63,947 nt of DNA from Candidatus Benthortus lauensis (GCA_021650775.1 JAHSRM010000060.1:1-63947); one strand, 5' to 3'. Counted from the first letter of the stretch, positions 30,940 to 45,084 are shown. Notes: a model not told the origin generated them from the letters alone. A program made the numbers and translations.

Positions 30940-30951
30940 TTCTAAGCAAAA

Positions 30952-31332
30952 TTAAAAATTGATTGAATATTTATCTAAAATTTCTTTTGCTATTTTACCT
31001 TCTACCTTACTGATAGTATTTCTTTTACTAAGGAAGGCTTGTGCTTGCGGTGAAAGAGATTCGTATCTTAATTGACTCGTTGTAAGCCATCTTACCTTTC
31101 TAAGATGAGCACATTTCTCTTCATCAAAATATGCGTTCCCTATTATCTTTGCTATACCATATACTCTTTTATTAGAATAGACGATAACTAAATCTCCTTT
31201 CTTTATTTCTTTATAAAACATACAGAACTGTTCTGCTACATAAGAGGTCTTCCAACGTTTATTCTGCCAACCATTTCTATAATTAGTTATTCTTCCTTTT
31301 TTTGAGCATATTCTATAAATCTCTTTATCCAT
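30952..31332 (-). CDS. hypothetical protein, probably the 3' part of a disrupted gene for a beta-barrel (PUA/EVE-like) domain protein
   Basis: The GDLVIVYS..RVYGIAKIIGNAYFDEE pattern fits such domains. Upstream out-of-frame segments (to about 31545) encode NRIWKIAPGEYGMYWDTW and ...QEWIKRFIEYAQKK, which join at an A7 run. Confidence 0.35.
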   Translation of the reverse strand: MDKEIYRICSKKGRITNYRNGWQNKRWKTSYVAEQFCMFYKEIKKGDLVIVYSNKRVYGIAKIIGNAYFDEEKCAHLRKVRWLTTSQLRYESLSPQAQAFLSKRNTISKVEGKIAKEILDKYSINF

Positions 31333-31604
31333 TCCTGCTTATCTTGAAGATCGTACCAGCTTTCTTTCTCAATATTCTTTATTCCTTTATTTATCTTAGT
31401 ATCCTACCCCGTTATCATCTACATCTTCCATCCAAGTATCCCAATACATTCCATATTCTCCAGGAGCAATTTTCCAAATTCTATTCTTAATCTTTTTATC
31501 TCTTTTATTAGAAATAGGAAAGTTTGAAATAATTGGAAGCTCATACTTTTTATTCTCTGTTTTTCTTGTTTTGTTTTCTTTTTTAACGCTTGATGCCTAT
31601 CATG

Positions 31605-32132
31605 CTAGAACTTTTTATATTTCTCTAAAATATCGTTAGTCAATTTTTGGGCATTACTACCATTATAACACAAATTAAACCAATTAATAATAGTATCATA
31701 ACTAGTTTCTTTTGGCAATATGTCTATTAAAACATTGGCCTCTAAATTACTCTTAAGAGCTGATTTAGTTAAATTCGATGATCCACATAAAACAGTTATT
31801 CTGTTCTTCTTCTTTGCTATGAAAACCTTTGCATGAAGACCGTCATTACGATAAACTTTGATATTTACTTTCTTAATATTCTTCAAAACTCTTAATGCAT
31901 CTGGCTCTGTAATAGGATTAGTAGTTTGCAATCCGACAATTAGTTTAACTAATGAATTTTTTCTTTTCAAATATCGATTTATCATCTCTTTTAAAAATTC
32001 CGCTCCTTCTCTTTTAACATACGCAATTATTCCATACACTTCTTCAGCATCTTTAAACAATTCATGAAATGCCTCATTAACAGATATAGCATCTTTTTTA
32101 AATTTTGAAGTAAATACCATTTCGTACAGCAA
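31605..32132 (-). CDS. single-HKD phospholipase D-family nuclease (Nuc/NgoFVII/BfiI-like)
   Basis: LHAKVFIAKKKNRITVLCGSSNLTKSAL matches HxK...GSxN. At 175 aa it has one HKD copy, so it would act as a dimer. Confidence 0.75.
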   Translation of the reverse strand: MLYEMVFTSKFKKDAISVNEAFHELFKDAEEVYGIIAYVKREGAEFLKEMINRYLKRKNSLVKLIVGLQTTNPITEPDALRVLKNIKKVNIKVYRNDGLHAKVFIAKKKNRITVLCGSSNLTKSALKSNLEANVLIDILPKETSYDTIINWFNLCYNGSNAQKLTNDILEKYKKF

Positions 32133-32187
32133 TTAAGCTTTTGTAAAATATCTTATAAAAACTTTGCAAAAAGAGTCCAATTTTTAT

Positions 32188-32205
32188 GGTGCGGGGGTGG
32201 GATTT
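32188..32205. repeat. candidate att site (copy of the tRNA-Leu 3' end)
   Basis: GGTGCGGGGGTGGGATTT matches TGTGCGGGGGGTGGGATTT at 44976-44996 (tRNA acceptor/T-arm 3' portion), apart from one G in the G-run. Same orientation. Confidence 0.45.
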
Positions 32206-32270
32206 CCGCCAAAATTTACCAGTATAAGAAGAATAAAATTTATAAATATGTCTGGAGTGGCAGCTACTCG

Positions 32271-33029
32271 TTGCCAATAAATGGTAAAATGCGAGCAGCA
32301 ATTGCAAAGAGATTATATGAACACTTTGCTTGGACAAATAGCTATGGTAAAGAATGGATAACACCGTTACCTTCTAAAATTGAAGAATATTTTGGAGAAC
32401 GATTAATAAGCTATTATCCTTTGCATCCTGAGAAAAAGATTAGAGATTTTGTTTTTGGATGCGAGGAAAAATCTTTACTTGGCTTTTTAGCATATCTCAC
32501 AAAAGATGATCAAAAACTTGAGGAAGAATTAAATGAAGAGCTACAGAAAATTGGGATAAGTCTTTCTCGTGGTCAAGTGATTTCTTCTACAGAGATTGAA
32601 CTTGGATTATTAGAGGAAGAACCTGAGTTACTAGTATATTGGAAAAACTGGGGCTAGGAGAACATGCAAGAATATTAATCAATGGTATATCTGATATGAG
32701 GGAAAAATAAAATATATGAAGCGAACAGTAAAATTTGTTTGTCGTTTGATGGTATACTGAAGAAATTACTTTTAAGGAAAGGGATATCCGTCCCAGATAG
32801 ATGTACGTTAGGTAAGTTAGTTAACCTAGGTCTGGAATCAGGTTTGATAGAACCCGAAATGCGTCCTATCTTTGAAAGTTATGTCTCTCTTAGGAATTTA
32901 CCTCCTCAACATTCCGGCCCCAAGGGAGATATATCAAATGTTTCAAAAACACTAACCTTTGCATTAGCGCACATTAGTAGAGCCCTAATAGGATATTTAA
33001 TTGAACGAATAAAAACAGAATTAGTTTAA
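32271..33029 (+). pseudogene. AbiJ-like protein with C-terminal HEPN domain, split over three reading frames
   Basis: ORFs 32271-32657 and 32739-33029 are bridged by a third-frame piece, ILEKLGLGEHARILINGISDM. The C-terminal piece carries SLRNLPPQH (Rx5H HEPN-type motif). Confidence 0.4.
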
Positions 33030-33149
33030 CAGGCTAGCATTAGCTCATTCAATCTAAGCACTTCTTCTGAGATGTTTTTCTAATCTCCATCTAAGATTCA
33101 ATTTCTTTGAGGAAGAATAAATATAAACGAGACTCTCTGTATTTCCAAT

Positions 33150-34091
33150 AATTTAATTACCTTAGAAGGTATACATCGTGCATGCTGAAGAGATATAATG
33201 TTCCCATAGTTCAAACTATACATAGTCCCCCTCCTATAGATGAAAAATTTTGGCTTGATAATGCAAAGAATTTCGTTGACTTAAATATAGTTCTCAGTAA
33301 TGCGATGAAAAAATGGCTCAAATCAGTAGGTTATCCTGATAATAGAATAATTAAAATACCTGGATTTATAGATTTTGAGTTATTTAATCCAAATATAAAA
33401 ATAAATTTTGAAAAGTTTAACATGATAGGACTGGACATAAATAAAAATAATGATAATTATATTATTTTTTGCCCAGCAAGATTTTCTCCTTCTAAAGGAG
33501 TAGATGTATTACTCAAGGCATTTCGTTTATTGAATATTCAAGATTCAAGTAATGTTAAATTATTGTTAACTGGTAGATTTGCTGGAAGAGAGTTCTTACT
33601 CCCACATTCGCAATATCATATTTCAAAGTATATTGACTATATAAAGCATCTTGTTAAAAAATATAATTTGCAAAAAGTAATTATTAACTACAAAACAGTT
33701 TTTTCCGATAAAGTTAATTTTATTCAGAGAATTCCATATGACATAATGCCTTATCTATATAAAATTTCCGATGTTCTAACGTATCCTTCTCTTCTTAAAC
33801 CACATTTTGAAGCATTTGGATTAGCTTTAATTGAAGCTATGAGAATGGAAATTCCTATTGTTGCAACTAGAAACGGTGGAATGCGTGAGATATTAATAAG
33901 ATGGCATTACCGGTTTACTAGTAAATCCAGGAGATCCTGTTCATTTAGCGAATAAGATCAATCAACTGCTAGAAGATGAATCTTTAAGGAAAAAATTAAT
34001 TTTAAATGCAAAAAGAGAGGTTTTTAAATATGAGGCATCAAGGACTATAAATAACATAATAAACTTATACTATCAACTTAAAGAATTTTAG
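33150..34091 (+). pseudogene. GT4-family glycosyltransferase, N-terminally truncated and frameshifted
   Basis: EAFGLALIEAMRMEIPIVATRNGGMREIL continues in another frame as DGITGLLVNPGDPVHLANKINQLLEDESLRKKL... to the stop at 34089-34091. Most of the N-terminal Rossmann domain is missing. Confidence 0.7.
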
Positions 34092-34687
34092 AGAATTAAC
34101 AACTCATCCATTAAAAATTTCTTCATTGATCTTTTTATTTCCATCTTCTCACTTATCTTTACCTGAAAAACGCGCCAGAACCCGTTACCGATATTTTAAA
34201 TAATATAATATGTTTTAAAAATAGAACATACACTCGAAGCCGATGGATGGACCACGAGTGACTTAAAAATAAATTGACTTTGTTGAAATGGTTATAACTT
34301 AAACCTATAATAAATTTGTTTAACCAAGTTAAAATCAATGATGTCATCATAGGCAGGACAAACAAACTTTCCTATTCTGAAAGGTATATTAATTCTTAAC
34401 GAATGTATCAGCGCTCCACCATAACATTTGAAGCGATTAATGTTAGGTTGGAGTTCCTTTTTGAATTCTTGACTTTTAAGCCGAAAGCCTATAGCTAAGC
34501 TGCTTAACCCGCTTTCTTCAACTCATCTCCCGAAAGGAAGTATGAATATTCTCCAGTTATCTGAAACTCACTCACCAACCACTCATAGAACTGGTCGTCC
34601 TCACTTGACGTGACGACCTGCTCCACAAATTCTTCGATTGGTTTCTCAACTTCAGGCTTAGCCTCCGTTACCGTGAGTTCTTTCTCA

Positions 34688-34810
<123 letters not shown>

Positions 34811-35116
34811 CTACCTGACTTATTAAAAGCAGGAAGCTGATAAAATAGAGTCTCTGACAATAAGATAGGTCAGGACTATGTCTAAAGACCAGCCCGTTTA
34901 CTGTTGCTGGAAGCAAAGTTAAGACGATAGGGGCGTAATCTCGTTTTCAAATAATTTAAAATATAAATGTCATACGAAAAGGTAATGAACAATTATTCTT
35001 CTAATGCTCAATTAGAAGAATTTACAAGAAAACTATCATAGGAAAAGTTTTGGAAATGTTTGGGTTTACTAAGATGTTCTAGGAGATTTTGTATTTGGGG
35101 CGAATTTTTACGTTAC

Positions 35117-35190
35117 GATTACCATAGTATGGTCGTCAAGTATGGATTACCATATGGCAATAACCTATGGTGTTACCATATGGTAACGAT
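35117..35190. repeat. three iteron-like TTACCATA(T)GG repeats, including a perfect 16-bp palindrome
   Basis: GATTACCATAGTATGG (35117-35132), GATTACCATATGG (35145-35157) and the palindrome GTTACCATATGGTAAC (35172-35187). Spacing is 26-28 bp. Confidence 0.6.
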
Positions 35191-35226
35191 ATAGGGCTTT
35201 AGGTGAATAAAAGAATTGCTAAGTAG

Positions 35227-35863
35227 CTACCTCGAGAGTTTTTCACTAATGATTGTTAAGATAATACTAAGTTTGAGGAATTCATGTTTTATTATTGCTG
35301 TGAGCATGGAGAGTATGAAATCTTCCTTTAAAGATCGTTCAATCTCATTTCTATTCTTTATATTTAACAGTGTCTCAGTGAACATCTGTATATACTTTTC
35401 TCCCTCTCTAAAAATGCTTATGGCCTTTTTAGGGTTCTCTCCTACTATAGATGCAATGAATTGTATAGGCGAGACAAACACCAAGTGGTAAAGAAGTTCC
35501 ATCATCTAATCTCACCTTAACACCAAGACCAAATTGAGTGAGTGAACTTACATTCGAGATTTTTAGCTTTAAAATATTTTCAAACTTACTAATAGGAATG
35601 CGATAATACTTCATTAATGTCCCTACAGCAAGTTCTAAGAAAAATCTCTTTCTCTCTACATACCAAGTAAGAAATTGGCTTAACGTAGATCTACGGCGCC
35701 TTAACTCCCTCCTCAATTTATCACGAATTGAAGCCCGAAGCCTGGCTGATATCAAAGGATGCGTGCGTTCATATTTCACTCGAGACGGTGGCTTATGTTT
35801 AGATTTGCGACTCGCAGTTGATCGACGGGAATCTGATTTTGTTTGAAAGACGACATTTTTCAA
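35227..35863 (-). pseudogene. RHH-like DNA-binding protein of unknown function, apparently frameshifted
   Basis: A basic N-terminus with ISARLRASIRDKLRRELRRRRSTLSQFL (RHH-like). ORFs 35429-35863 and 35227-35505 overlap in different frames, as expected for one disrupted gene. Confidence 0.3.
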
Positions 35864-36096
35864 TATATGTCACCTCTATTTGATAAATGATGTCCTTCAA
35901 TAATATGCCAGTGGATTCTATCACCAAAAATTAAGACTCTTACATTCTTTCCTTTAAGCTTCTTCAATTTATTTAGTGTTTTAGGATCTATTTTCACCGT
36001 CAATTTTTCAGTCTTTTTAGCTAACAATAGTATTCCATCACTATCTACCGACAATATAATACCTCTGCCCTCCACAATCTCATTTCTTTCCATCAT
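35860..36096 (-). CDS. hypothetical protein
   Basis: 78-aa ORF. Its stop overlaps the next ORF's TTG start (TTGA). No family recognised. Confidence 0.35.
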   Translation of the reverse strand: MMERNEIVEGRGIILSVDSDGILLLAKKTEKLTVKIDPKTLNKLKKLKGKNVRVLIFGDRIHWHIIEGHHLSNRGDIY

Positions 36097-36144
36097 AAAA
36101 AGATAGAATATTTTACCTATATGAATTCTTTAAGAACAATACAG

Positions 36145-36168
36145 TTCCGGAACTAGTATGTTCCGGAA
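36145..36168. promoter_or_regulatory. twin TTCCGGAA palindromes (candidate operator) in a divergent promoter region
   Basis: GTTCCGGAA at 36144-36152 and 36160-36168, 16 bp centre to centre. They lie between the minus-strand operon (ends at 36096) and the plus-strand gene at 36208. Confidence 0.35.
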
Positions 36169-36207
36169 TAGGTAGTTAACATAAGATATAAAAATAAGAA
36201 CAAATTC

Positions 36208-36624
36208 ATGAAAAATATGCAAAAGCCTAAGTATGTCAGGACAAATATTTTAAGATCGTTGTACGGATATCCTGAAGGACGCAGCTATTCTTCAGTAATT
36301 AGCGAAGTGATAGAAAGATCTAATGTAAGTGAACGGTATATAAGGAAAAGCAAGTCAACATTAATTAGATATGATTATATCGAAGAGTTTTCCAAGAAAA
36401 GAAGAAAGTATCTCAAATTGAAAATGCTTGGTACAGAATTTACTGAATCGACAATGAATCTTGATATAGACCAAGAAATTCATCCTTCGGAGATTAATCT
36501 ATCTAAAGAGGAGATAATCAGAGCTATTAAGGCCGGTCTTCTGAAGATTTCAAAGGATTTGAAGTTGCTGCTTGGTACAATCAATTTTGGAAGGAGACGA
36601 AGAATTTTAAGAAGAACCTCATAA
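36208..36624 (+). CDS. hypothetical protein, possible winged-helix DNA-binding protein
   Basis: ILRSLYGYPEGRSYSSVISEVIERSNVSERYIRKSKSTLIRYDYIE resembles a wHTH. Low certainty. Confidence 0.4.
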   Translation: MKNMQKPKYVRTNILRSLYGYPEGRSYSSVISEVIERSNVSERYIRKSKSTLIRYDYIEEFSKKRRKYLKLKMLGTEFTESTMNLDIDQEIHPSEINLSKEEIIRAIKAGLLKISKDLKLLLGTINFGRRRRILRRTS

Positions 36625-36805
36625 ACCTCTTAATAAATTAAAACATGTATGTGACATTTAGAATACTATACCTGTTCTCGTCACAACAAGGAACATATAA
36701 AGGAGGTTGAATTATGATACATGGGACTCTTCACGAAGTAGCATCAGCATTTAGGATAGTAAGTATAGAGAAAATGAAGGTGAAATTCTTGTGAGGGAAT
36801 GATAT

Positions 36806-37015
36806 TCATCTTGAATTTAGTAGTCTTCTTTTGAATGATGTTATTGTTATTCCTGCGGGTTCTCCCTTACTGTCCAAGTCTACTATGATGCCTTCCTCTA
36901 TCTCTACTCCCTCGGCTGCTTCCCGGTCTCCGAAGTGTATGTATAGTGTGTCTGCTTCCTCGTCGTAGTGGATGTACGCGCCGCTTATCCTAAGCTTTCT
37001 CAGGGCTTCCTCCAA
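36806..37015 (-). CDS. DUF2283-family protein (putative antitoxin)
   Basis: YIHYDEEADTLYIHFGD...GIIVDLDSKGEPAGITI is the characteristic DUF2283 pattern. Confidence 0.7.
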   Translation of the reverse strand: MEEALRKLRISGAYIHYDEEADTLYIHFGDREAAEGVEIEEGIIVDLDSKGEPAGITITSFKRRLLNSR

Positions 37016-37338
37016 ACCACCCTCCTCCTCTTCTCCAACTTTTCTACGTCTTTTGTGGGGTACGCGGTGATTATAAATCCTTCCCTGTTAAGCGGCCTGT
37101 ACACGACAACGAGGTATGCTCCTCCGAGAAGGTCTTTAAACCATCGTATGGTCAGCAGCTCTCCGAGGCGGCCCTCCAAGACCATCTCAGGCTCCTCCAA
37201 AGTTTCCACTATCTTAGGACGATGCTCATGAAGCCAGGGTCTCTTGGCGAGGATATGTCTCCAGCTGCCTAGACCAAGCCTGATACGCCTCCCACGGAAA
37301 TCATAGGCCTCGAGAACTACACCCGACCCATTGCTCAA
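37000..37338 (-). CDS. DUF4258-like putative toxin
   Basis: WRHILAKRPWLHEHRPKIVETLEEPEMV...YLVVVY...GFIITAYP. Overlaps the DUF2283 gene by 16 nt. The only plausible start is a TTG at 37338, which overlaps the recombinase remnant's stop. The upstream part of the track ORF is an alternate frame of that remnant. Confidence 0.4.
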   Translation of the reverse strand: MSNGSGVVLEAYDFRGRRIRLGLGSWRHILAKRPWLHEHRPKIVETLEEPEMVLEGRLGELLTIRWFKDLLGGAYLVVVYRPLNREGFIITAYPTKDVEKLEKRRRVVWRKP

Positions 37339-38100
37339 ACTATCCCCAGCTTCGGGATGTATGCTTGATAAGCTTTCCTCAGCTCCTCCGGATCTATGTG
37401 GTCGTAGATGTCTATCGCCTCCCCCCTCCTGCCCCCTCTTAGTTCTTTTATGAACTCCCGTGGCATTCCATTCCTCCTGAGCCAGGTTGTGAACCAATGC
37501 CGGAGACCATGTGGCTAATCCTTAATCCAAGTTTTGACGAGTGCTTCACAATAACATTAATATCATGTTTCTGTTTATTCGCTTCTTGCTCTCATAATTT
37601 GTGAACAGCGCTTTAGTTCGCGGTCTCAGTTGCTCTCTGATCTAAGCACCTTTCAAGAACTAACGCAGCTTCATCGTCAAAAACCCTCGATTACTTCTCT
37701 TTTGCGTCTTCTCAAGATATTTTGCAGCTCTCCCAATCAATATTATCTATATCAAGTCTAATGAGCTTGCTTCTTCTAATTTCCGTTTTCCCAGCAAGAC
37801 TATTATCACCCATTCTCTAGGATCCAACGTCGAGCTAACCATCCTAGCAGGCTCTTCAATCTACTCTTCTTCGCTCTTACATCTCCTAGATAGCACGTTG
37901 TTCATTGGAACTTTCTCCTCATAGGCTAGGTAATCGTAAAACGTGGACAGCGCCGAAAATAATTCTCAAGAGTCTTATGCCTCACCTTCTTCTCAGAAGC
38001 TCTATCAGCTCATGATTAAACCTCATAACATCCTCGAAGCGAGGTTCTGGAAATCGCTGAGCCCTATACCTCTGAAGAAGCTTTTCCCAAGACTATCGAC
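37335..38100 (-). pseudogene. tyrosine recombinase (XerC/D-like integrase) remnant A
   Basis: Multiple stops and frameshifts. Recognisable pieces are LENYFSALSTFYDYLAYEEKVP, IIVLLGKTEIRRSKLIRLDIDNIDWE and an in-frame C-terminus HGLRHWFTTWLRRNGMPREFIKELRGGRRGEAIDIYDH. Clear nucleotide similarity to 43475-44406. Confidence 0.7.
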
Positions 38101-38102
38101 TA

Positions 38103-41100
38103 TTAACGTGATTTTAATATTCTTTCTTTAGCTAAATGTTCAATTTCTTGACTATCTATACTTCCATCAGGTCTCTCTTTGGATACTATTAATTGTTTAT
38201 AATAGCCGTTTTCTTTATACCATCGCTCTTTTCTTTTCCAGTCTTTAATATAATCTGGATCATTTAACATGCCAAGATGTTCCCAGTAAAACGTTTTTCC
38301 TTGATACTTTATAGTAAAATCTGGTAACCGATAATCCAACGGATCATTTTTAGAATAAAGTGGTTTCTCATATTCATAACTTATGCCTAAATCAGCTAAA
38401 ATGTTTGCTATAATTACCTCCGATTTAGATCTAACCAATTCTCCTTTCCTTGTTACATGTTTTAATTGTTCTGGTTTGAACGGCTCTTTACAAATTTTCA
38501 ATTTAAATAGATTTGTATTTCTCTTAAGAGTTTGAGAATATTGTAGATTTCTATATGTCAGTAAAGGAAGTATATCTTTTTCAATAAGTAGAATTATTTT
38601 TCTTCTGAACCTAGTTAATCCCGTATATAGTAGTTCTGTTGATAGCGTTGATGTTTTCTGTGGTACGATAAAAATTACTACATCAAAATCACTTCCTTGT
38701 GATTTATGGACTGTAATAGCATATGCTAATTCGAGGTTTTCGTCTATCACATTTTTCCCATAATATCTAAATCTTATGTTCGGATGCGTTGAAAATTCTA
38801 CTTCTAAGAATTTTTTCTCTTTATTAAGTTTAACTACTCTGCCAATTTCTCCATTCGCTACATAGTCAGAATATTGTCCATTTCCATTTATTATCTGAAC
38901 CTGTTTTTCTTTTCCTTTGGTTCTCTTGTTAATAATTTGTATAACTTTATCAGTATACATTATTTGTTGTTCTCCTAAATATTTTCTCTGCATAAATAAT
39001 CCTCTATTATACTTTTCTTGAATAATACGGTTTATTTCTGTTGTTCCAAAGAAATGTAATCTTGTAGGTGAAATAATCTGCCAATTTTCAGGATTCTTAA
39101 GTGATTCATTAAATCTTTGATATAAGGGTTCACCGTTTTTCTTTTCATATAAGATGTTCATTATATTCTTTTCTAATATTTCATAAAGTTCTTTTTCATC
39201 ATTCCAAAAATATACTTCTAACTCTTTAGATGTAGACCTTTTTGCAATTTTGGAAAGTATCTCATCATCTCCAGGAGAACCCTTTTCCCTTAAGAAGAAA
39301 TCAGCTAATTTTAGAGCATCGGAACCCTCATGACGAACACGCTGGGTTAAGCAAATAACATGTTCTTTCCCATTTTCTTCTAGATAATCTATAATATCTA
39401 TAAAGGGTCTGCCAGGCCCTATCGGAGGTAGTTGATTAGGATCTCCTACAAGGACCAGTCGTTTAATATAATTAAAGTCAAGAGCTCTAAATAATGTGGC
39501 TAGAAGATCTATGGGAATCATGGAAGCCTCATCTATAATTACATTTTCATATACTCCTTTACTTCCGCCCTCATTCTTTAGAGAGTATGTTTCTTCTCTT
39601 ATCCATCCTTGTTTCATTAAGAATTCATGAATAGTTAATGCTTTTCTTCCTGTAATAGATTGTAATCTGACTCTTGCTTTTCCAGTAGGAGCTAACAGTA
39701 ATAATGAAGTTTTCCCCTCTAATTCTTCAAGCCCCTTTATGAATGGTTTGAGAACAGTGGTCTTTCCAGTACCTGCTCTTCCCATTATTACAGATAAACG
39801 ATTTGAGAAAAGCGCTCTTAATGCTTCTATTTTTTCTTGACGCGCTTTATCTTCTAATGATTTATTTTCCAGCCTCTTAACATTCCTCAGTTCATTTTCT
39901 ATTAATTTTTTAAGTGTATGGTCAGAAGGTTCATCGTATTTCCCTTTAAGAAGATTCTTAATACGACCTTCAACCTCTTTTTCCATATCATAAAGAGATT
40001 TTAATGCGATAAACTTTGGATTATTTCTAGGGATAAAAACCAATTGCTCTTCATAAAATTTACGATTATGTAAAATAATATCTAAATCAAGCTCAAATAA
40101 TCGATTTTTAGGTAATCTTCTTTTTATTCTTTTAAAAGCTTCATAAACTGATATACAAGTATGTCCTTCTGTTGATGCTTCTTTTAATATTTGAACTAAT
40201 AACGCTCTTACTCTGCGCTCATCATCTTTGTCTATATACTCAAAATCAATTTTTTTAAAATTAGAAGCCAGTTTTTCATTTAATATCATACCCCTATCAA
40301 TGGTCTCGAAGTCTGTAGGAGGGGAATCACTATCTCCATCATCTAACTCTGAAATTATGTAGGGGTTTTCTATTAATTCCCTTTCTGTAGCATCTATGAA
40401 TGCTTCTTTACGTTTTTCTCGGTTAGACACCCTCTTTATTTGTTCAGGCGACAATGCAAAGCGGCATAATATCTTTAGTAGTTCTTTTCTTATTTTTGGA
40501 AGCTTCTTCCATTTTCTCATAGCTTTCTTATAATTTTCATAATACTTTTTTGGGATTCTTTTTCTCTTTCCATCAAGGATTGAGAAAACATAATGATGAA
40601 TATTCATTCCTTTAGATTCTAAGCTAGTTAGTTCCATACGATGATAAATAACGCCATTCTCAAAGCCTAAGGCTTCTAAAACACTACCAACTCCAGGGAA
40701 AACGCCACGATTCTTCCATACTTCCTCCAATACTTTATTTAACCACTTCAATCTATATTGCCACGATTTGCCATAAGGCTCTTTTATCTTATTATCTTTT
40801 ACTATAGTTTCTATAGACTGAATTGCTCTTTCAATTATTCCAACAGCAGTATCATCTGTCACATGTTCTGCAACATACGAAAACTGCCTTTTAGCTGAAG
40901 CTGGAATATAACAAATTATTTCTGATACATCATATCCATTTTTAATGTATTCTTGATATGGTAAACGAACTCCCTGTTCAGGAAAGCTATGAGTTATACA
41001 CCTAGACCATACAGGATAATTTTCTTTATATCCGGATTTCTTCCCAAAAAATTTTTGTCTACCTATATGAGATACGCGGCTTATTCCAATTAATATTCTC

Positions 41101-41576
41101 TTTTTTCTATCTTCTTCTAAAGGATTAGCGTAATTAACATAAAAGAATATGAGTGACTTGCTTGGAACTATCTCCTGCCAAAAATTTTTTAGTTTCTCTA
41201 ATTGAATTTTTGGATCACTTATCCAAGTTTCTCCTTGGTCCTCGCTAAGCATCCTCTCATATGGAGCTGTACAAAATGAATAAGGAGGGAGTTCTTCTTC
41301 AACTGGTGGTAAATTCCTCCATTCCAAAGGATCTTTATGAAGTATTGTAAAACCTTTAGAAGAGAATGTTGCTATATCTCTTGAACAAGGAGGAAGCTCA
41401 TTGAGTTTAAGCTTACTTACATGTTTTTTGGAATTCGTACATTCTACATCCTCATTCCTTTCTTCCCTTATATGTTCATGCATTACACAAGAAACATTTA
41501 ACTTAGGATTATCACAGATGCATCCGTCCCATCCCCGGTCATGCCATACAAGACGCGCTGATAGGTGGAGCGGCAT
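38103..41576 (-). CDS. 1157-aa fusion protein: unassigned Cys/His-rich N-terminal domain, RecD-like SF1B helicase and C-terminal PD-(D/E)xK-like nuclease
   Basis: Helicase motifs: GRAGTGKTT (aa 599-607, about nt 39756-39782), VIIDEASM, LVLVGDPNQLPP, AYAITVHKSQGSDFD and LLYTGLTRFRRK. C-terminal nuclease-like segment: RSKSEVIIANIL..YEYE..RLPDF...YWEHLG. N-terminus: LVWHDRGWDGCICDNPKLNVSCVMHEH. Confidence 0.85.
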   Translation of the reverse strand: MPLHLSARLVWHDRGWDGCICDNPKLNVSCVMHEHIREERNEDVECTNSKKHVSKLKLNELPPCSRDIATFSSKGFTILHKDPLEWRNLPPVEEELPPYSFCTAPYERMLSEDQGETWISDPKIQLEKLKNFWQEIVPSKSLIFFYVNYANPLEEDRKKRILIGISRVSHIGRQKFFGKKSGYKENYPVWSRCITHSFPEQGVRLPYQEYIKNGYDVSEIICYIPASAKRQFSYVAEHVTDDTAVGIIERAIQSIETIVKDNKIKEPYGKSWQYRLKWLNKVLEEVWKNRGVFPGVGSVLEALGFENGVIYHRMELTSLESKGMNIHHYVFSILDGKRKRIPKKYYENYKKAMRKWKKLPKIRKELLKILCRFALSPEQIKRVSNREKRKEAFIDATERELIENPYIISELDDGDSDSPPTDFETIDRGMILNEKLASNFKKIDFEYIDKDDERRVRALLVQILKEASTEGHTCISVYEAFKRIKRRLPKNRLFELDLDIILHNRKFYEEQLVFIPRNNPKFIALKSLYDMEKEVEGRIKNLLKGKYDEPSDHTLKKLIENELRNVKRLENKSLEDKARQEKIEALRALFSNRLSVIMGRAGTGKTTVLKPFIKGLEELEGKTSLLLLAPTGKARVRLQSITGRKALTIHEFLMKQGWIREETYSLKNEGGSKGVYENVIIDEASMIPIDLLATLFRALDFNYIKRLVLVGDPNQLPPIGPGRPFIDIIDYLEENGKEHVICLTQRVRHEGSDALKLADFFLREKGSPGDDEILSKIAKRSTSKELEVYFWNDEKELYEILEKNIMNILYEKKNGEPLYQRFNESLKNPENWQIISPTRLHFFGTTEINRIIQEKYNRGLFMQRKYLGEQQIMYTDKVIQIINKRTKGKEKQVQIINGNGQYSDYVANGEIGRVVKLNKEKKFLEVEFSTHPNIRFRYYGKNVIDENLELAYAITVHKSQGSDFDVVIFIVPQKTSTLSTELLYTGLTRFRRKIILLIEKDILPLLTYRNLQYSQTLKRNTNLFKLKICKEPFKPEQLKHVTRKGELVRSKSEVIIANILADLGISYEYEKPLYSKNDPLDYRLPDFTIKYQGKTFYWEHLGMLNDPDYIKDWKRKERWYKENGYYKQLIVSKERPDGSIDSQEIEHLAKERILKSR

Positions 41577-41587
41577 TATATTGTTTT

Positions 41588-41593
41588 ACCTCC
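41588..41593 (-). promoter_or_regulatory. Shine-Dalgarno-like GGAGGT upstream of the 1157-aa gene
   Basis: The minus strand reads TTAGGAGGTAAAACAATATA-ATG. An A/T-rich TTAAAAAC lies about 25 nt further upstream. Confidence 0.35.
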
Positions 41594-41813
41594 TAATAGT
41601 TTTTAAGGCTTTCTTTGTACAACCGCTTCTAAGAAAGATAAACACATGAAATAAGCTGAGCTACGGATACATGAAACATTCCATAAGGTGGCATTAGCGT
41701 TTAGGATAGTGGATATAAAGAAAATCTTAAAGTTCTATGAACATAAGAAGCAGGTAAAAGGTGTGGATGTTGTCAGACATCAACTTTATTAATCATTAGT
41801 TGGGTTCCTTATT

Positions 41814-42002
41814 TTGATGGGTGAGGTTTCGGAGATACTTGGTGAGATTCGGGAGGAGCTGAGGGAGCTTAGACTACTCTATAAAGAGCTTGTTGAGAGG
41901 CTTATTCCCGTCGAGGAGCCCGAACCAGATGAAAAGAAAGCAATAAAGGAGGAAGACGAAATCGTCGGCGAAGAAGAGTTGTTCAGGGTTTTGGGCGACT
42001 AG
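41814..42002 (+). CDS. putative antitoxin (acidic small protein) of the RelE module
   Basis: 62-aa acidic ORF ending 3 nt before the RelE-family gene. Confidence 0.5.
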   Translation: MMGEVSEILGEIREELRELRLLYKELVERLIPVEEPEPDEKKAIKEEDEIVGEEELFRVLGD

Positions 42003-42005
42003 GAT

Positions 42006-42266
42006 TTGTTTAGGCTTGAGATCAATCGTAAGGCCCTGAAAGCCCTCGAGAAGCTGGATGAGAAGAGGAGGAAGAGGTTTACCGATGTCTTCTCTATATT
42101 GAAGGAGGATCCCGTCCCCTTCAGGAAGCTTAATGTGGCTAAACTTCGTGGATATGAGAGCACCTATCGTATAAGGATCGGCGACCTAAGACTCGTATAT
42201 ACTGTTTATTGGGCTGAGAGAAGAATACTAATACACTTCATAGGAACAAGAAGAAAAGCGTATTGA
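42006..42266 (+). CDS. relE: type II toxin, RelE/ParE family
   Basis: KLRGYESTYRIRIGDLRLVYTVYWAERRILIHFIGTRRKAY, a typical RelE C-terminal core. Confidence 0.85.
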   Translation: MFRLEINRKALKALEKLDEKRRKRFTDVFSILKEDPVPFRKLNVAKLRGYESTYRIRIGDLRLVYTVYWAERRILIHFIGTRRKAY

Positions 42267-42316
42267 TTTTATGACAATAATGGTATAGCTATAAATTGTT
42301 ATGCTTGCCAAAAATA

Positions 42317-42916
42317 TTATTCTTCACCCATTGTTGCGCTAACCCGACATATATACTCCATCTTTTTCCTGAACCTTTCACGTAGATCACTATTTGTTGG
42401 ACATCTAAGACTAGATACATAATTTTCAAATTCTTTAACTAGCTGACTATGAAACAATCTACGGTTTATAATGAGCCCTTTTCCGTCTTCAGTAAAGCTG
42501 ACAAGTGGGGTTCCTTCCCGTATAATTACACGAGAACTTCCTTTAACCTCAGCTTGATGCAGAATACCGCATCGGATTTGGTCATAAAAAATTTTGGCTT
42601 TCTTTTCATCGAAAAATTCTTTAAAAGAGCTCTCCGTTAAGAAGCGGACAAAATATTCTTTTGATCTTCCGTGCGGAGTTTGTTCTACTCCTTCTCGAAA
42701 CTGTTGAAGTGTCTCAATAAGCAAACAGTCAAGTGCTAAGACTGCAAAGCCAGAATATGTCTGATTTTGAATGCGGTCTATAATATCTAAGAAGCGCCCT
42801 CTAATACGATCCTCGAAAATATCTATTGCCTTCTGCCACCCCTCTTCTTTTGAAAAGTCTATTCTTCGCCAATCCTCCGTTGTATAATGAGGTGAAATAC
42901 GCATCACATTTATCAC
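42317..42916 (-). CDS. hypothetical protein with a possible HEPN-type Rx4H motif
   Basis: Predicted mostly helical. FYDQIRCGILHQAE places R115-x4-H120 (nt 42557-42574). No other family motif recognised. Confidence 0.35.
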   Translation of the reverse strand: MINVMRISPHYTTEDWRRIDFSKEEGWQKAIDIFEDRIRGRFLDIIDRIQNQTYSGFAVLALDCLLIETLQQFREGVEQTPHGRSKEYFVRFLTESSFKEFFDEKKAKIFYDQIRCGILHQAEVKGSSRVIIREGTPLVSFTEDGKGLIINRRLFHSQLVKEFENYVSSLRCPTNSDLRERFRKKMEYICRVSATMGEE

Positions 42917-42977
42917 ATCTTTAGGATATAAATATTATTAAGCTAATAAGCTTTTCTATAGAAGTGGAGCTGTGGGT

Positions 42978-43445
42978 ATGGGCCGGATTTGGTATTTTTC
43001 CTATGGTAGGAATATGAATTCTAGTAAATTGTATGAAAGAATAAAAAGAAAACCTTTCAGTATATATAGAGGAAGATTGCTGAATTATAAACTCATCTTT
43101 GGCAAGGTTCCGGGTCCTAAACTAGGTACAGGATACGCAACTATTGTTCCAAGTCCAAAAGAATCGGTAGAAGGAGTATTATACTTACTTAACGGTCAGG
43201 ACTTAGAAGTATTGGATAAATATGAAGGCGTGGAAACGGGTAACTACATCAGATGTAAAGTAGAGGTTCTAAATTTAGATTTAAACATTATTGTAAAAGC
43301 TTACACATACATAGCTGTTAAAGTGGACGAAAATCTGAAACCTCCAAGAGAATATTTAGCCGAGTTAATAGAGTCTTCTAAGAGGATGTCTCTAACTAAT
43401 GACTGGATAATTAAACTAGAAAATCTAATGAAAGATTCCTTATAA
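42978..43445 (+). CDS. gamma-glutamylcyclotransferase (GGCT/AIG2-like) family protein
   Basis: The YFSYGRNMNSSKL N-terminal motif (YGSNL-type), VEGVLYLL and LDKYEGVETGNYIR (catalytic Glu context). Confidence 0.75.
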   Translation: MGRIWYFSYGRNMNSSKLYERIKRKPFSIYRGRLLNYKLIFGKVPGPKLGTGYATIVPSPKESVEGVLYLLNGQDLEVLDKYEGVETGNYIRCKVEVLNLDLNIIVKAYTYIAVKVDENLKPPREYLAELIESSKRMSLTNDWIIKLENLMKDSL

Positions 43446-43474
43446 AATCCTTTTCTCCACCAGTCTGGAGAATA

Positions 43475-44406
43475 TTATTCTATTCTTAGTTTTGGTATTG
43501 ATGCTAAGTATGCTTTTCTTAGCTCTTCTTCGTCTATGTGGTCGTAGATGCCTACCGCCTCTTTTTTCGGCCTCCTCTTAGCTCTTTAATGAATTCTCGG
43601 GGCATCTTATTTCTCCTAAGCCATGTAGTGAACCAGTGCCTCAGATCGTGGGGGACTTATTCTCAGACCAAGCCTGGATGAGTGCTTGACAACCACATTG
43701 AAGATTGTGTTTCTGTCTATTCGCTTCTTGCTTGCATAGTTTATGAAAAGGGCTTTGGTTTCTGGTTTGAGTATTGCTCTTGCTTTGAGCCATCTTCTGA
43801 GAACTATTGCTGTCTCGTCGTCGAAGAATACTATTCGGTTGCTCCGCTTCGGCTTCTTCAGGATGATCCTATATTTTCCCAGTCGATGTCATCTACGTCG
43901 AGTCTTATCAGCTCACCCCTCCTTATCCCTGTCTTTGCCAATAGGACTATTATCGCCCTATCCCACGGCTCTAGAACCGAGTTAACTATCCTGCTAAGCT
44001 CCTCAACGCTTAGAAGCCTCCTAACATGCTGCTCCTCATCACCCTTATACCTCCTGAGATAACGTTTCCTAAATGGTAAGATATAATTTGCTGGAACTAT
44101 CCCCTCATAGGCAAGATAATCATAGAATGTTGATAGTGCTGAGAAATAATTCTCTAAGGTCTTGTGACTAATCCTCCTCTTAAATCTAAGATATCTCAAG
44201 AAATTTCTAAGAACTTCCTTATCTACATTAAGCAGGCTTAATCCATCGGCTTTCAGGTATTCTATAAAGATTCTAATCGCCGATATATACTTCCTTATGC
44301 TCTCCCCGTTCATCTCCTTGAGTACGCAGTCCTTCCTGAAGTCTTGTATAATCCTCTCAGAATCAATCTTCCTGATCCTCAGCTGCTTTAGCCTCTCCAT
44401 CTCCAA
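43475..44406 (-). pseudogene. tyrosine recombinase (XerC/D-like integrase) B, at least three frameshifts
   Basis: The N-terminal 182 aa are intact (SAM-like domain, AKTGIRRGEL). The rest continues in other frames as RIILKKPKRSNRIVFFDDETAIVLRRWL..., then HDLRHWFTTWLRRNKMPREFIKELRGGRKK, then EAVGIYDHIDEEELRKAY... to the stop at 43475-43477. Confidence 0.75.
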
Positions 44407-44926
44407 CCCTTCCTAGGAAACTCGATCAGTCCGTAGTCCTCGAGAATCTCGAATCTCGAGCTGCCTTGAGATCGCCTTCACGTATTCCGTCTCGGATGGA
44501 TCGACACCAAGCCTGTCGAGGATTTCCTCTTCGCTGAACGATTCACCTGTCTTCAGAAGTTCTATTAGTTCTCTATCGAATCTTCGAATGCCCTCAAAGT
44601 GTGGCTCTAGAAATGGTTGAGCTCTGTATCTTCTGAGTTCGCGTTCAAGATTCTCGACAAGTTTTTCTTAGCATCCTGTTTTCTTCACGAAGTCTTTTAA
44701 CCTCATCATCGAATTCTTTCAACTTCTTAATCAATTCAAGTCTACTCTCGAATCTGTGGTTTTCGCTCTTCCTGATATAATCCTCAACAATCTCAAAGAC
44801 AAACTTCGATAATGATTTCTTCGCTAACGCCGCATGCCTCCTCCATTCCTCAACAAACTCCTCACTCGGAAGATAAACGTAGACGGTTCTCTCCTTGATG
44901 GTCTCAGTCTTCCTCCGCCCAACCAT
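44388..44926 (-). pseudogene. RHH / coiled-coil / wHTH regulator, frameshifted
   Basis: VYVYLPSEEFVEEWRRHAALAKKSLSKFV (RHH). The frame breaks at an A5 run (...NRMLRK|LVENLERELRRY...) and again at a 7-bp tandem duplication, GAATCTC x2 (44444-44457), before ...LEILEDYGLIEFPRKGW. Confidence 0.5.
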
Positions 44927-44970
44927 CCCAACGGTATCAAAAGGTATTACCCTTTACATAGTTTACCGGT

Positions 44971-44975
44971 AAAAA
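44971..44975 (-). terminator. T5 tract immediately 3' of tRNA-Leu
   Basis: The minus strand reads ...GCA-CA-TTTTT-ACC directly after the discriminator base. Oligo-T is the usual archaeal termination signal. Confidence 0.3.
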
Positions 44976-44977
44976 TG

Positions 44978-45084
44978 TGCGGGGGGTGGGATTTGAACCC
45001 ACGAACCCCTATGGGACAGGGGTTCTCATCCCTTTTTTTGGGATCCTGAGCCCTGCGCCTTTGGCCAGGCTTGGCTACCCCCGC
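44978..45084 (-). tRNA. tRNA-Leu(CAG) with a 22-nt intron
   Basis: Hand-folded. Acceptor stem GCGGGGG/CCCCCGC, A73, anticodon stem CAGGG/CCCTG, loop CUCAGG, long variable arm UCCCAUAGGGGUUC, and T-arm GUGGG-UUCAAAU-CCCAC. The intron ATCCCAAAAAAAGGGATGAGAA (45023-45044) follows position 37. Confidence 0.85.

Follow-up and report, generated by a model that had tools for sequence, protein, structure and literature searches.

A conserved N-terminal domain of predicted PUA-like fold heads a RecD2-type helicase of the candidate defence family PDC-S68

What is the role of the N-terminal part of a giant helicase, when this part is rich in cysteine and resembles no catalogued domain? The question is raised by a gene in a 63,947-nucleotide stretch of DNA from Candidatus Benthortus lauensis (GCA_021650775.1 JAHSRM010000060.1:1-63947), the whole of which is referred to here as the window. 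From open reading frame (ORF) listing and translation, the gene was placed on the minus strand at 38103..41576; it has an ATG start and encodes a protein of 1157 amino acids (aa) that opens MPLHLSARLVWHDRGWDGCICDNPKLNVSCVMHEH. The start agrees with the consensus of the protein family, which begins M-x-T-H-L-S-x-R-L-x-W-H-D. An earlier sequence-only reading had located an unassigned module at 40887-41576. These coordinates are right but have to be read on the minus strand, where they are the first 230 codons of the ORF; the plus-strand reading was rejected, its translation being full of stops. The blocks SLIFFYVNYANPLEEDRKKRILIGISRVSHIG, YPVWSRCITHSF and GVRLPYQEY, which had been picked out as part of the module, are all present in the minus-strand translation. 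The results described below lead to a tentative answer: aa ~1-240 would be the targeting (reader) domain, probably for a modified base, of a one-polypeptide Type IV-like restriction enzyme.

The complete protein was compared with the PADLOC models of defence genes. All three models of PDC-S68, a candidate single-gene defence family, were matched over their full length and collinearly, with scores of 1084.8 bits (PDLC05065; aa 4-1152 of the protein against positions 7-1218 of 1221 in the model), 943.9 bits (PDLC05066) and 655.5 bits. The N-terminal region contributes to these matches, as aa 1-260 alone match the models at about 1e-43 to 1e-65. By this comparison the window protein is a member of PDC-S68 and, since the match runs from end to end, the family is already catalogued. 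The entry carries no described mechanism, domain analysis or validation. No description of the helicase-nuclease was found in literature searches for PDC-S68, for PUA-like domains with RecD or for fusions of EVE domains with helicases, and the RefSeq annotation of plasmid-borne relatives reads only 'AAA family ATPase'.

The N-terminal region forms a discrete module. In an AlphaFold model of aa 1-399 (mean predicted local distance difference test score, pLDDT, of 86.5), the chain is beta-rich up to about residue 240 and only helices are seen thereafter. When aa 1-245 were modelled with a diverse alignment of 31 sequences, a single compact domain was obtained (pLDDT 94.9; predicted template modelling score 0.91). 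The boundary of about 230 aa proposed from the sequence is therefore about right. With the all-helical region beginning at aa 241, the domain is assigned to aa 1-240 (40857..41576, minus strand), as a compact alpha/beta unit whose closest fold is PUA-like (the EVE/YTH/SRA class), a predicted reader of nucleic acid or modified bases. That it could not be assigned to a known family was also borne out. There was no match for aa 1-245/260 in Pfam, NCBIfam or PHROGs, sequence and profile searches of the PDB sequences with the domain returned nothing meaningful, and when 31 diverse family members were scanned against Pfam at E <= 10, the only matches were isolated, scattered ones attributable to chance. 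When 1.84 billion representatives were searched with a profile of the domain, 1524 representative clusters were recovered at E <= 1e-3, of which 369 reached E <= 1e-30. By these sequence comparisons, the domain is conserved far beyond chance.

In order to compare the fold with known structures, the domain-only model was searched with Foldseek against 350,542 PDB chains. The top 8 matches were all PUA-like readers: PH1033 (two entries), THYN1 with 5-methylcytosine DNA (two chains), MJECL36, the N-terminal domain of Thermococcus gammatolerans McrB with 5-methylcytosine DNA, VcaM4I and AspBHI. PH1033, human THYN1 and MJECL36 are EVE proteins and VcaM4I is a modification-dependent endonuclease. 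YTHDF2, MspJI and UHRF2-SRA were found at lower ranks, and the same PUA-like theme was present among the fold matches of the longer model (aa 1-399). A viral fold library gave weak matches, mostly to tail-tube barrels, with an EVE protein at rank 2. Binding of a flipped modified base by a PUA-like domain is common to all of the top 8 matches, and with so large a library such consistency is not easily put down to chance.

The topology of the model was next to be reconciled with that of the readers. In an hhalign comparison with PH1033 alone, aa 133-171 pair with residues 31-68 over 34 columns (P = 0.043, not significant), and the PH1033 segment so paired is the helix-strand-strand unit expected from the topology. 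An insertion of ~110 aa (aa 10-121; 41214..41549, minus strand) separates the first strand of the barrel from this helix-strand-strand core. The conserved cysteines lie within the insertion, as do three extra strands, and its boundaries are estimated from the secondary structure of the model against the PH1033 topology. The domain is thus likely, at the level of the model, to be a PUA-like core with a ~110-residue insertion bearing conserved Cys. This assignment is made because the fold matches are consistently to readers and the hhalign pairing is the expected one, though none of these comparisons is significant. Among the fold matches, the EVE/PUA-like readers (PH1033, MJECL36, THYN1, VcaM4I and the YTH-like McrB N-terminal domain) rank highest and are alone in recurring; in them, as in the window domain, strand 1 is followed by a helix, a strand pair and the later strands, and they share with it an N-terminal position in a restriction-type enzyme. 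In contrast to them, the window domain is ~100 residues larger, has an insertion with three invariant Cys and gives no sequence-profile match. On the sequence comparisons the domain does not belong to the EVE family proper.

Conservation was examined in 87 full-length representatives (<= 50% mutual identity) together with the window protein, 88 sequences in all. The Cys richness noted earlier is real, as 6 of the 12 Cys of the protein lie within aa 1-110 (Fisher p = 3.7e-4). The metal-binding cluster proposed from the sequence was upheld only in part. Three of its residues are conserved, namely C21 (99%), C30 (99%) and C64 (100%), while the other four of the seven are not: C19 is kept in 15%, H33 in 11%, H35 in 12% and C46 in 5%. 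Two histidines outside the original proposal, H12 (95%) and H4 (93%), are better conserved than those within it; H80 is kept in 53% and C102 in 17%. The conserved set of C21, C30 and C64 with H12 (or H4) spans 53-60 residues, and it is a reasonable inference that it forms a Cys3His metal site, more likely for a structural zinc than for an iron-sulfur cluster. The predicted ligands lie on the minus strand within 41385..41543: H12 at 41541-41543, C21 at 41514-41516, C30 at 41487-41489 and C64 at 41385-41387. A classical zinc finger or ribbon was also considered. The C19-x-C21 pair, H33 and H35 are not conserved, and this candidate was rejected because no CxxC knuckles are conserved in the alignment.

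Conservation extends well beyond the putative ligands. W11, W16, G18, C21, P24, N27, C30, C64, Y146, G164 and P206 are invariant in the family, and D13, E45, P62, P63, S141, F144, P152, W190, Y207, F232 and Y234 are invariant or nearly so. The block that had looked conserved in the single sequence is indeed so, with S141, F144, Y146, P152, G164, W190, P206 and Y207 each kept in at least 90%. The aromatics W11, W16, Y146, W190 and Y207 are kept in 94-100%. Extra residues, 64-101 in number, precede the domain in 13 of the 87 representatives; no Pfam match was found in the three such extensions that were scanned.

The rest of the protein provides a motor and a nuclease-like domain. The only part recognised by Pfam is a RecD2-like superfamily 1B (SF1B) helicase core at ~aa 440-1004 (AAA_19, 6.6e-27; AAA_30, 4.6e-25; UvrD_C_2, 4.2e-12; SH3_13; HHH_RecD2), and the helicase is delimited by Pfam, NCBIfam and motif conservation at aa 401-1004 (38565..40376, minus strand). 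Walker A is G599-K605 and Walker B is D682-E683, and both the SH3 insert and UvrD_C_2 are present. The residues G599, G602, G604, K605, D682, E683, G711, D712, Q715, R748, H957, Q960, G961 and R989 are kept in 95-100% of the family and are all found in the window protein, so that, judged by its motifs, the SF1B motor is intact. The NCBIfam model of RecD2, TIGR01448, was matched at 5.1e-83 with 279.4 bits against an equivalog cutoff of 500, which makes the protein a relative of RecD2 below the threshold. RecD2 and the RecD-like helicase of CRISPR type IV-D (PADLOC typeIV_RecD, 5.4e-63) have a homologous helicase core with HHH and SH3 elements. RecD2 is without an N-terminal reader-like domain and without a C-terminal nuclease, whereas the window protein has both.

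The domain and the motor are joined by an all-helical linker (aa 241-400; 40377..40856, minus strand), modelled by AlphaFold as helix from 241 to 391. Its residues W287, R290, G291, P294 and G295 are kept in 89-99%, and a putative helix-hairpin-helix (HhH)-like motif, RGVFPGVGSVLEAL, can be read from the sequence at aa 290-303. At the other end of the protein, the last ~130 aa match the PHROG entries 'Holliday junction resolvase' (1.4e-4) and 'endonuclease'. With a 19-sequence profile of this region, the best PDB match was T7 endonuclease I, weak at E about 0.2, and the alignment of SxxE...YE...PDF spans the catalytic E20/D55 region of that enzyme. In all members that have this domain, S1050, E1053, D1086, F1087, E1099, H1100 and G1102 are invariant; of these, E1053, D1086 and E1099 align with E20 and D55 of T7 endonuclease I. 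The C-terminal domain (~aa 1030-1140; 38157..38489, minus strand) is thus predicted to be a nuclease-like domain of the PD-(D/E)xK class, resembling T7 endonuclease I and Hjc.

The sequence-only reading had suggested looking for the domain fused to nucleases, TIR domains or proteases, as would be expected of a portable sensor. Such portability was not seen. The check covered the best 150 of the 1524 representatives, 119 database proteins of < 500 aa and the loci of 80 species genomes, which were fetched by a motif within the domain so that the retrieval was blind to the downstream sequence. Matches of < 900 aa among the best 150 representatives are collinear fragments of the same protein. No further Pfam domain was found in the 119 shorter proteins, except one helicase fragment. 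At the 80 loci the domain lies at the start of an ORF that spans the family model (about 1140-1290 aa), or of frameshifted or contig-truncated pieces of one. Three apparent exceptions to this architecture (two proteins and the ORF of one locus) were rejected, as they contain no new domain or are artefacts of ORF calling. No fusion with TIR, with a protease or with another nuclease was observed, and the proteins checked all have the domain at the head of a RecD2-type helicase with a C-terminal nuclease, or are fragments of this architecture.

The gene is split into at least two ORFs at about 15 of the 80 loci, and many database entries of the family are fragments with frameshifted tails. Some of the split copies come from long-read metagenome assemblies, where sequencing error and real decay are inseparable.

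A role in sensing or specificity, as had been supposed for the N-terminal module, is the most reasonable reading of this architecture, for the nearest structural neighbours of the domain are all modified-base readers and the remainder of the protein supplies motor and nuclease. In the mechanism that we propose, the head is a PUA-like beta-barrel core of the kind found in EVE, YTH and SRA domains, enlarged by the ~110-residue insertion, which is probably pinned by one metal on C21, C30, C64 and H12 (or H4). It would be followed by the helical HhH-bearing neck (aa 241-400), the 5'->3' SF1B motor and the C-terminal nuclease. The reader would bind invading DNA through a flipped base, most likely modified, held in a pocket of W11, W16, Y146, W190 and Y207. 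This binding would license the helicase to translocate and unwind, after which the C-terminal nuclease would cut. The logic has a precedent in SauUSI, a single-chain Type IV enzyme composed of a phospholipase D (PLD) nuclease, a superfamily 2 helicase and a C-terminal DUF3427/SRA-like reader of modified cytosine. As in SauUSI, reader, ATP-driven motor and nuclease are united in one polypeptide. Every part differs, however, since the window protein begins with an EVE-like predicted reader, continues with an SF1B RecD2 motor and ends in a putative PD-(D/E)xK nuclease.

Several results weigh against the reading of the protein as a Type IV-like enzyme with a modified-base reader. The top 8 fold matches are weak, with E values of 0.025-0.13, a best probability of 0.57, target-normalised template modelling scores of 0.15-0.36 and root mean square deviations of 9-12 Å. 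The EVE model of Pfam (PF01878) and the other Pfam reader models were not matched by the window domain or by the 31 diverse members even at E <= 10. When the diverse family alignment was compared by hhalign with a 21-sequence UPF0310/EVE alignment, which represents one narrow subfamily with 57-98% identity to PH1033, the probability was 0.35%. To our knowledge, the known PUA-like readers have no comparable Cys cluster. In the nuclease-like domain, the position of the ExK lysine is taken by L1101 in E1099-H1100-L1101, with H1100 invariant, and nuclease activity is therefore not certain. Finally, the operon-like fit of the gene inside BREX loci, described below, could mean that the protein depends on BREX and is not an independent Type IV enzyme.

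Of the alternatives, the one that survives best is that the head senses a DNA structure (ends, forks or single-stranded DNA) or a phage protein instead of a modified base. Its mode of action would then be like that of the helicase-nuclease defences Nhi, Hna, Gabija and Hachiman, which are not known to read modifications. The weak similarity to reader folds and the negative sequence profiles would be accounted for in this way, and so would the large insertion and the Cys site, which have no known counterpart in EVE or YTH domains. Moreover, loading at ends or on single-stranded DNA is a task for which the neighbouring HhH motifs and RecD2 motor are already fitted. We nevertheless consider such a sensor somewhat unlikely: no structural neighbours other than base-flipping readers recur, the invariant aromatics would suit a cage for a base, and the family is found repeatedly beside methylation-based systems.

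These neighbourhoods bear on the next alternative as well. The family is patchily distributed across bacterial and archaeal phyla, with members in Planctomycetota, Acidobacteriota, Chloroflexota, Proteobacteria (including Acinetobacter, Azospirillum and Variovorax), Bacillus plasmids and several archaeal lineages. At 17 of the 80 loci the gene is co-directional within type 3 BREX, in the order BrxF, BrxC, helicase-nuclease gene, PglXI, BrxHII, and in the best-resolved of these loci the gap to PglXI is 9-23 nt. The PADLOC scores in the BREX loci are 1132 bits for BrxC, 1123 for PglXI, 1274 for BrxHI/HII and 174 for BrxF. Five loci have the gene directly after a SNF2 helicase and a sacsin-like, TmtA-like ATPase; the SNF2 gene is ~3.07 kb upstream, and the ATPase of ~1020 aa (PADLOC 1.7e-61) ends 31-32 nt before the gene. 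In two further loci the TmtA-like gene is downstream instead. On Bacillus cereus megaplasmids the gene precedes the DISARM genes drmA/drmB, as on plasmid pMRY14-0105_1, where the relative adjoins DISARM drmA/DUF1998. On Paracoccus plasmid p7 a relative follows a Type ISP restriction-modification gene at a distance of 19 nt. The placement of the family in mobile elements and defence loci is thus a repeated one.

A 2026 survey of BREX (PMC12839542) describes nucleases that BREX loci carry as auxiliaries, GmrSD-family Type IV enzymes among them, and because of this precedent the Type IV-like reading gains support. In that survey the word 'RecD' occurs zero times in the text, and the placement of a helicase-nuclease between brxC and pglXI is not described. 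Like the present gene, those of the GmrSD family encode accessory nucleases within a BREX operon, where they presumably act on phages not stopped by BREX itself. They belong to an unrelated protein family, whereas the present gene has a fixed insertion point between brxC and pglXI in type 3 BREX.

From such loci it could be argued that the head reads a host methyl mark, or its absence, and that the protein is the nuclease arm of a neighbouring type 3 BREX, DISARM or Type ISP system. The tight, co-directional spacing between brxC and pglXI and the Type ISP gene just ahead of the p7 copy both speak for it. On the other side, such neighbours are missing around the window copy and at the majority of the 80 loci, and PADLOC lists the family as a single-gene candidate. 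No methyltransferase was found in Pfam and PADLOC scans of the longer ORFs of the island that holds the window gene, and no BREX genes were found among the neighbouring window ORFs scanned. A host-mark reader of this kind appears improbable. A bolder form, which we hold to be just as improbable, is that the domain is an unrecognised, metal-held branch of PUA-like domains that recognises a mark on adenine or cytosine which neighbouring methyltransferases have placed or omitted, and that between brxC and pglXI the protein acts as the DNA-degrading arm of type 3 BREX.

A third alternative is that the head binds a free nucleotide as an alarm signal and switches on the helicase-nuclease for abortive infection. 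It draws on a sensor of the same fold class, the PUA domain of the PUA-Cal-HAD system, which is reported to bind free m6-dAMP (bioRxiv 10.64898/2026.01.15.699771). In the window protein nothing points to oligomerisation or to a nucleotide-depleting effector, and the fused parts are DNA-handling modules; the chance of such a switch seems slim. The weakest alternative, a RecD2-type helicase that has a housekeeping role in repair and bears an ordinary zinc finger or iron-sulfur domain, would suit a core that is nearest to RecD2 and three invariant Cys able to bind zinc or an iron-sulfur cluster, but it was rejected as very improbable because the score of 279 bits is far under the equivalog cutoff and the context is a low-GC mobile island in the window and defence loci in the family, which is moreover patchy across phyla and plasmid-borne and lacks CxxC knuckles.

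The reading of the domain as a probable modified-base reader is also to be seen against the island in which the window gene lies. A low-GC (guanine plus cytosine) mobile island of ~14 kb was delimited at 30950..44977 from GC content, a tRNA gene and integrase remnants. Its GC is 32-41%, that of the flanking DNA 51-60%. The island abuts a tRNA gene interrupted by an intron (44978-45084, minus strand; Rfam 45.9 bits; missed by ARAGORN), and the integrase remnants inside the island include an N-terminal fragment at 43858-44406. The protein recurs in identical form on another metagenome scaffold, 14,152 bp long, whose only other genes are those of the island. The tRNA-adjacent, low-GC island and this second copy suggest an integrative element of an archaeal host.

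Further features of the island were recorded. The helicase gene is flanked by two repeats, at 37340-37630 and 43480-43772, which share 74-78% identity and lie 6.14 kb from each other; the second adjoins the integrase N-terminal fragment. From its sequence layout, the island may consist of two elements integrated in tandem. At the far end of the island, a PLD nuclease of 175 aa (31605-32132, minus strand) matches PLDc_2, NgoFVII-N, PADLOC DrmC and mREase_IV, the last being a model for Type IV methyl-directed restriction. Beside it lies a 126-aa ORF (30952-31332, minus strand) with a weak EVE match (E 5.9e-4), matches to PDC-S02 and DUF8426 on record. These two genes may form a second reader-plus-nuclease pair in the island. 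Between the helicase gene and an unassigned 199-aa ORF (42317-42916, minus strand), a ParE-type toxin ORF is present in antisense orientation (42006-42266, plus strand), and after the 199-aa ORF there is an AIG2/GGACT-like gamma-glutamylcyclotransferase (42972-43445, plus strand). A family 4 glycosyltransferase (33182-33955, plus strand) appears N-terminally truncated, the Glyco_transf_4 match starting from position 93 of 170 in the model.

That the protein family is a listed defence candidate and that reader, motor and nuclease can be combined is already known. Relative to the literature searched, the head domain itself, its remote PUA-like character with a Cys3His insertion and its fixed site in type 3 BREX operons appear novel. 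The family is widespread, yet it is annotated only as 'AAA family ATPase' and catalogued only as an unvalidated defence candidate. With the head domain defined, an anonymous giant ATPase becomes a testable reader-motor-nuclease model, in which C21, C30, C64, H12, W11, W16, Y146, K605, D1086 and E1099 are the candidate key residues. If the domain acts as the reader in a DNA-degrading arm of type 3 BREX, it would provide the long-sought link between BREX methylation status and the destruction of phage DNA. If it is not a modification reader, it would be a new kind of infection sensor. If it is one, it would offer a new recognition scaffold for modification-dependent restriction enzymes, and for epigenetic mapping tools as well, and would explain why the family has lodged repeatedly in BREX, DISARM and Type ISP loci.

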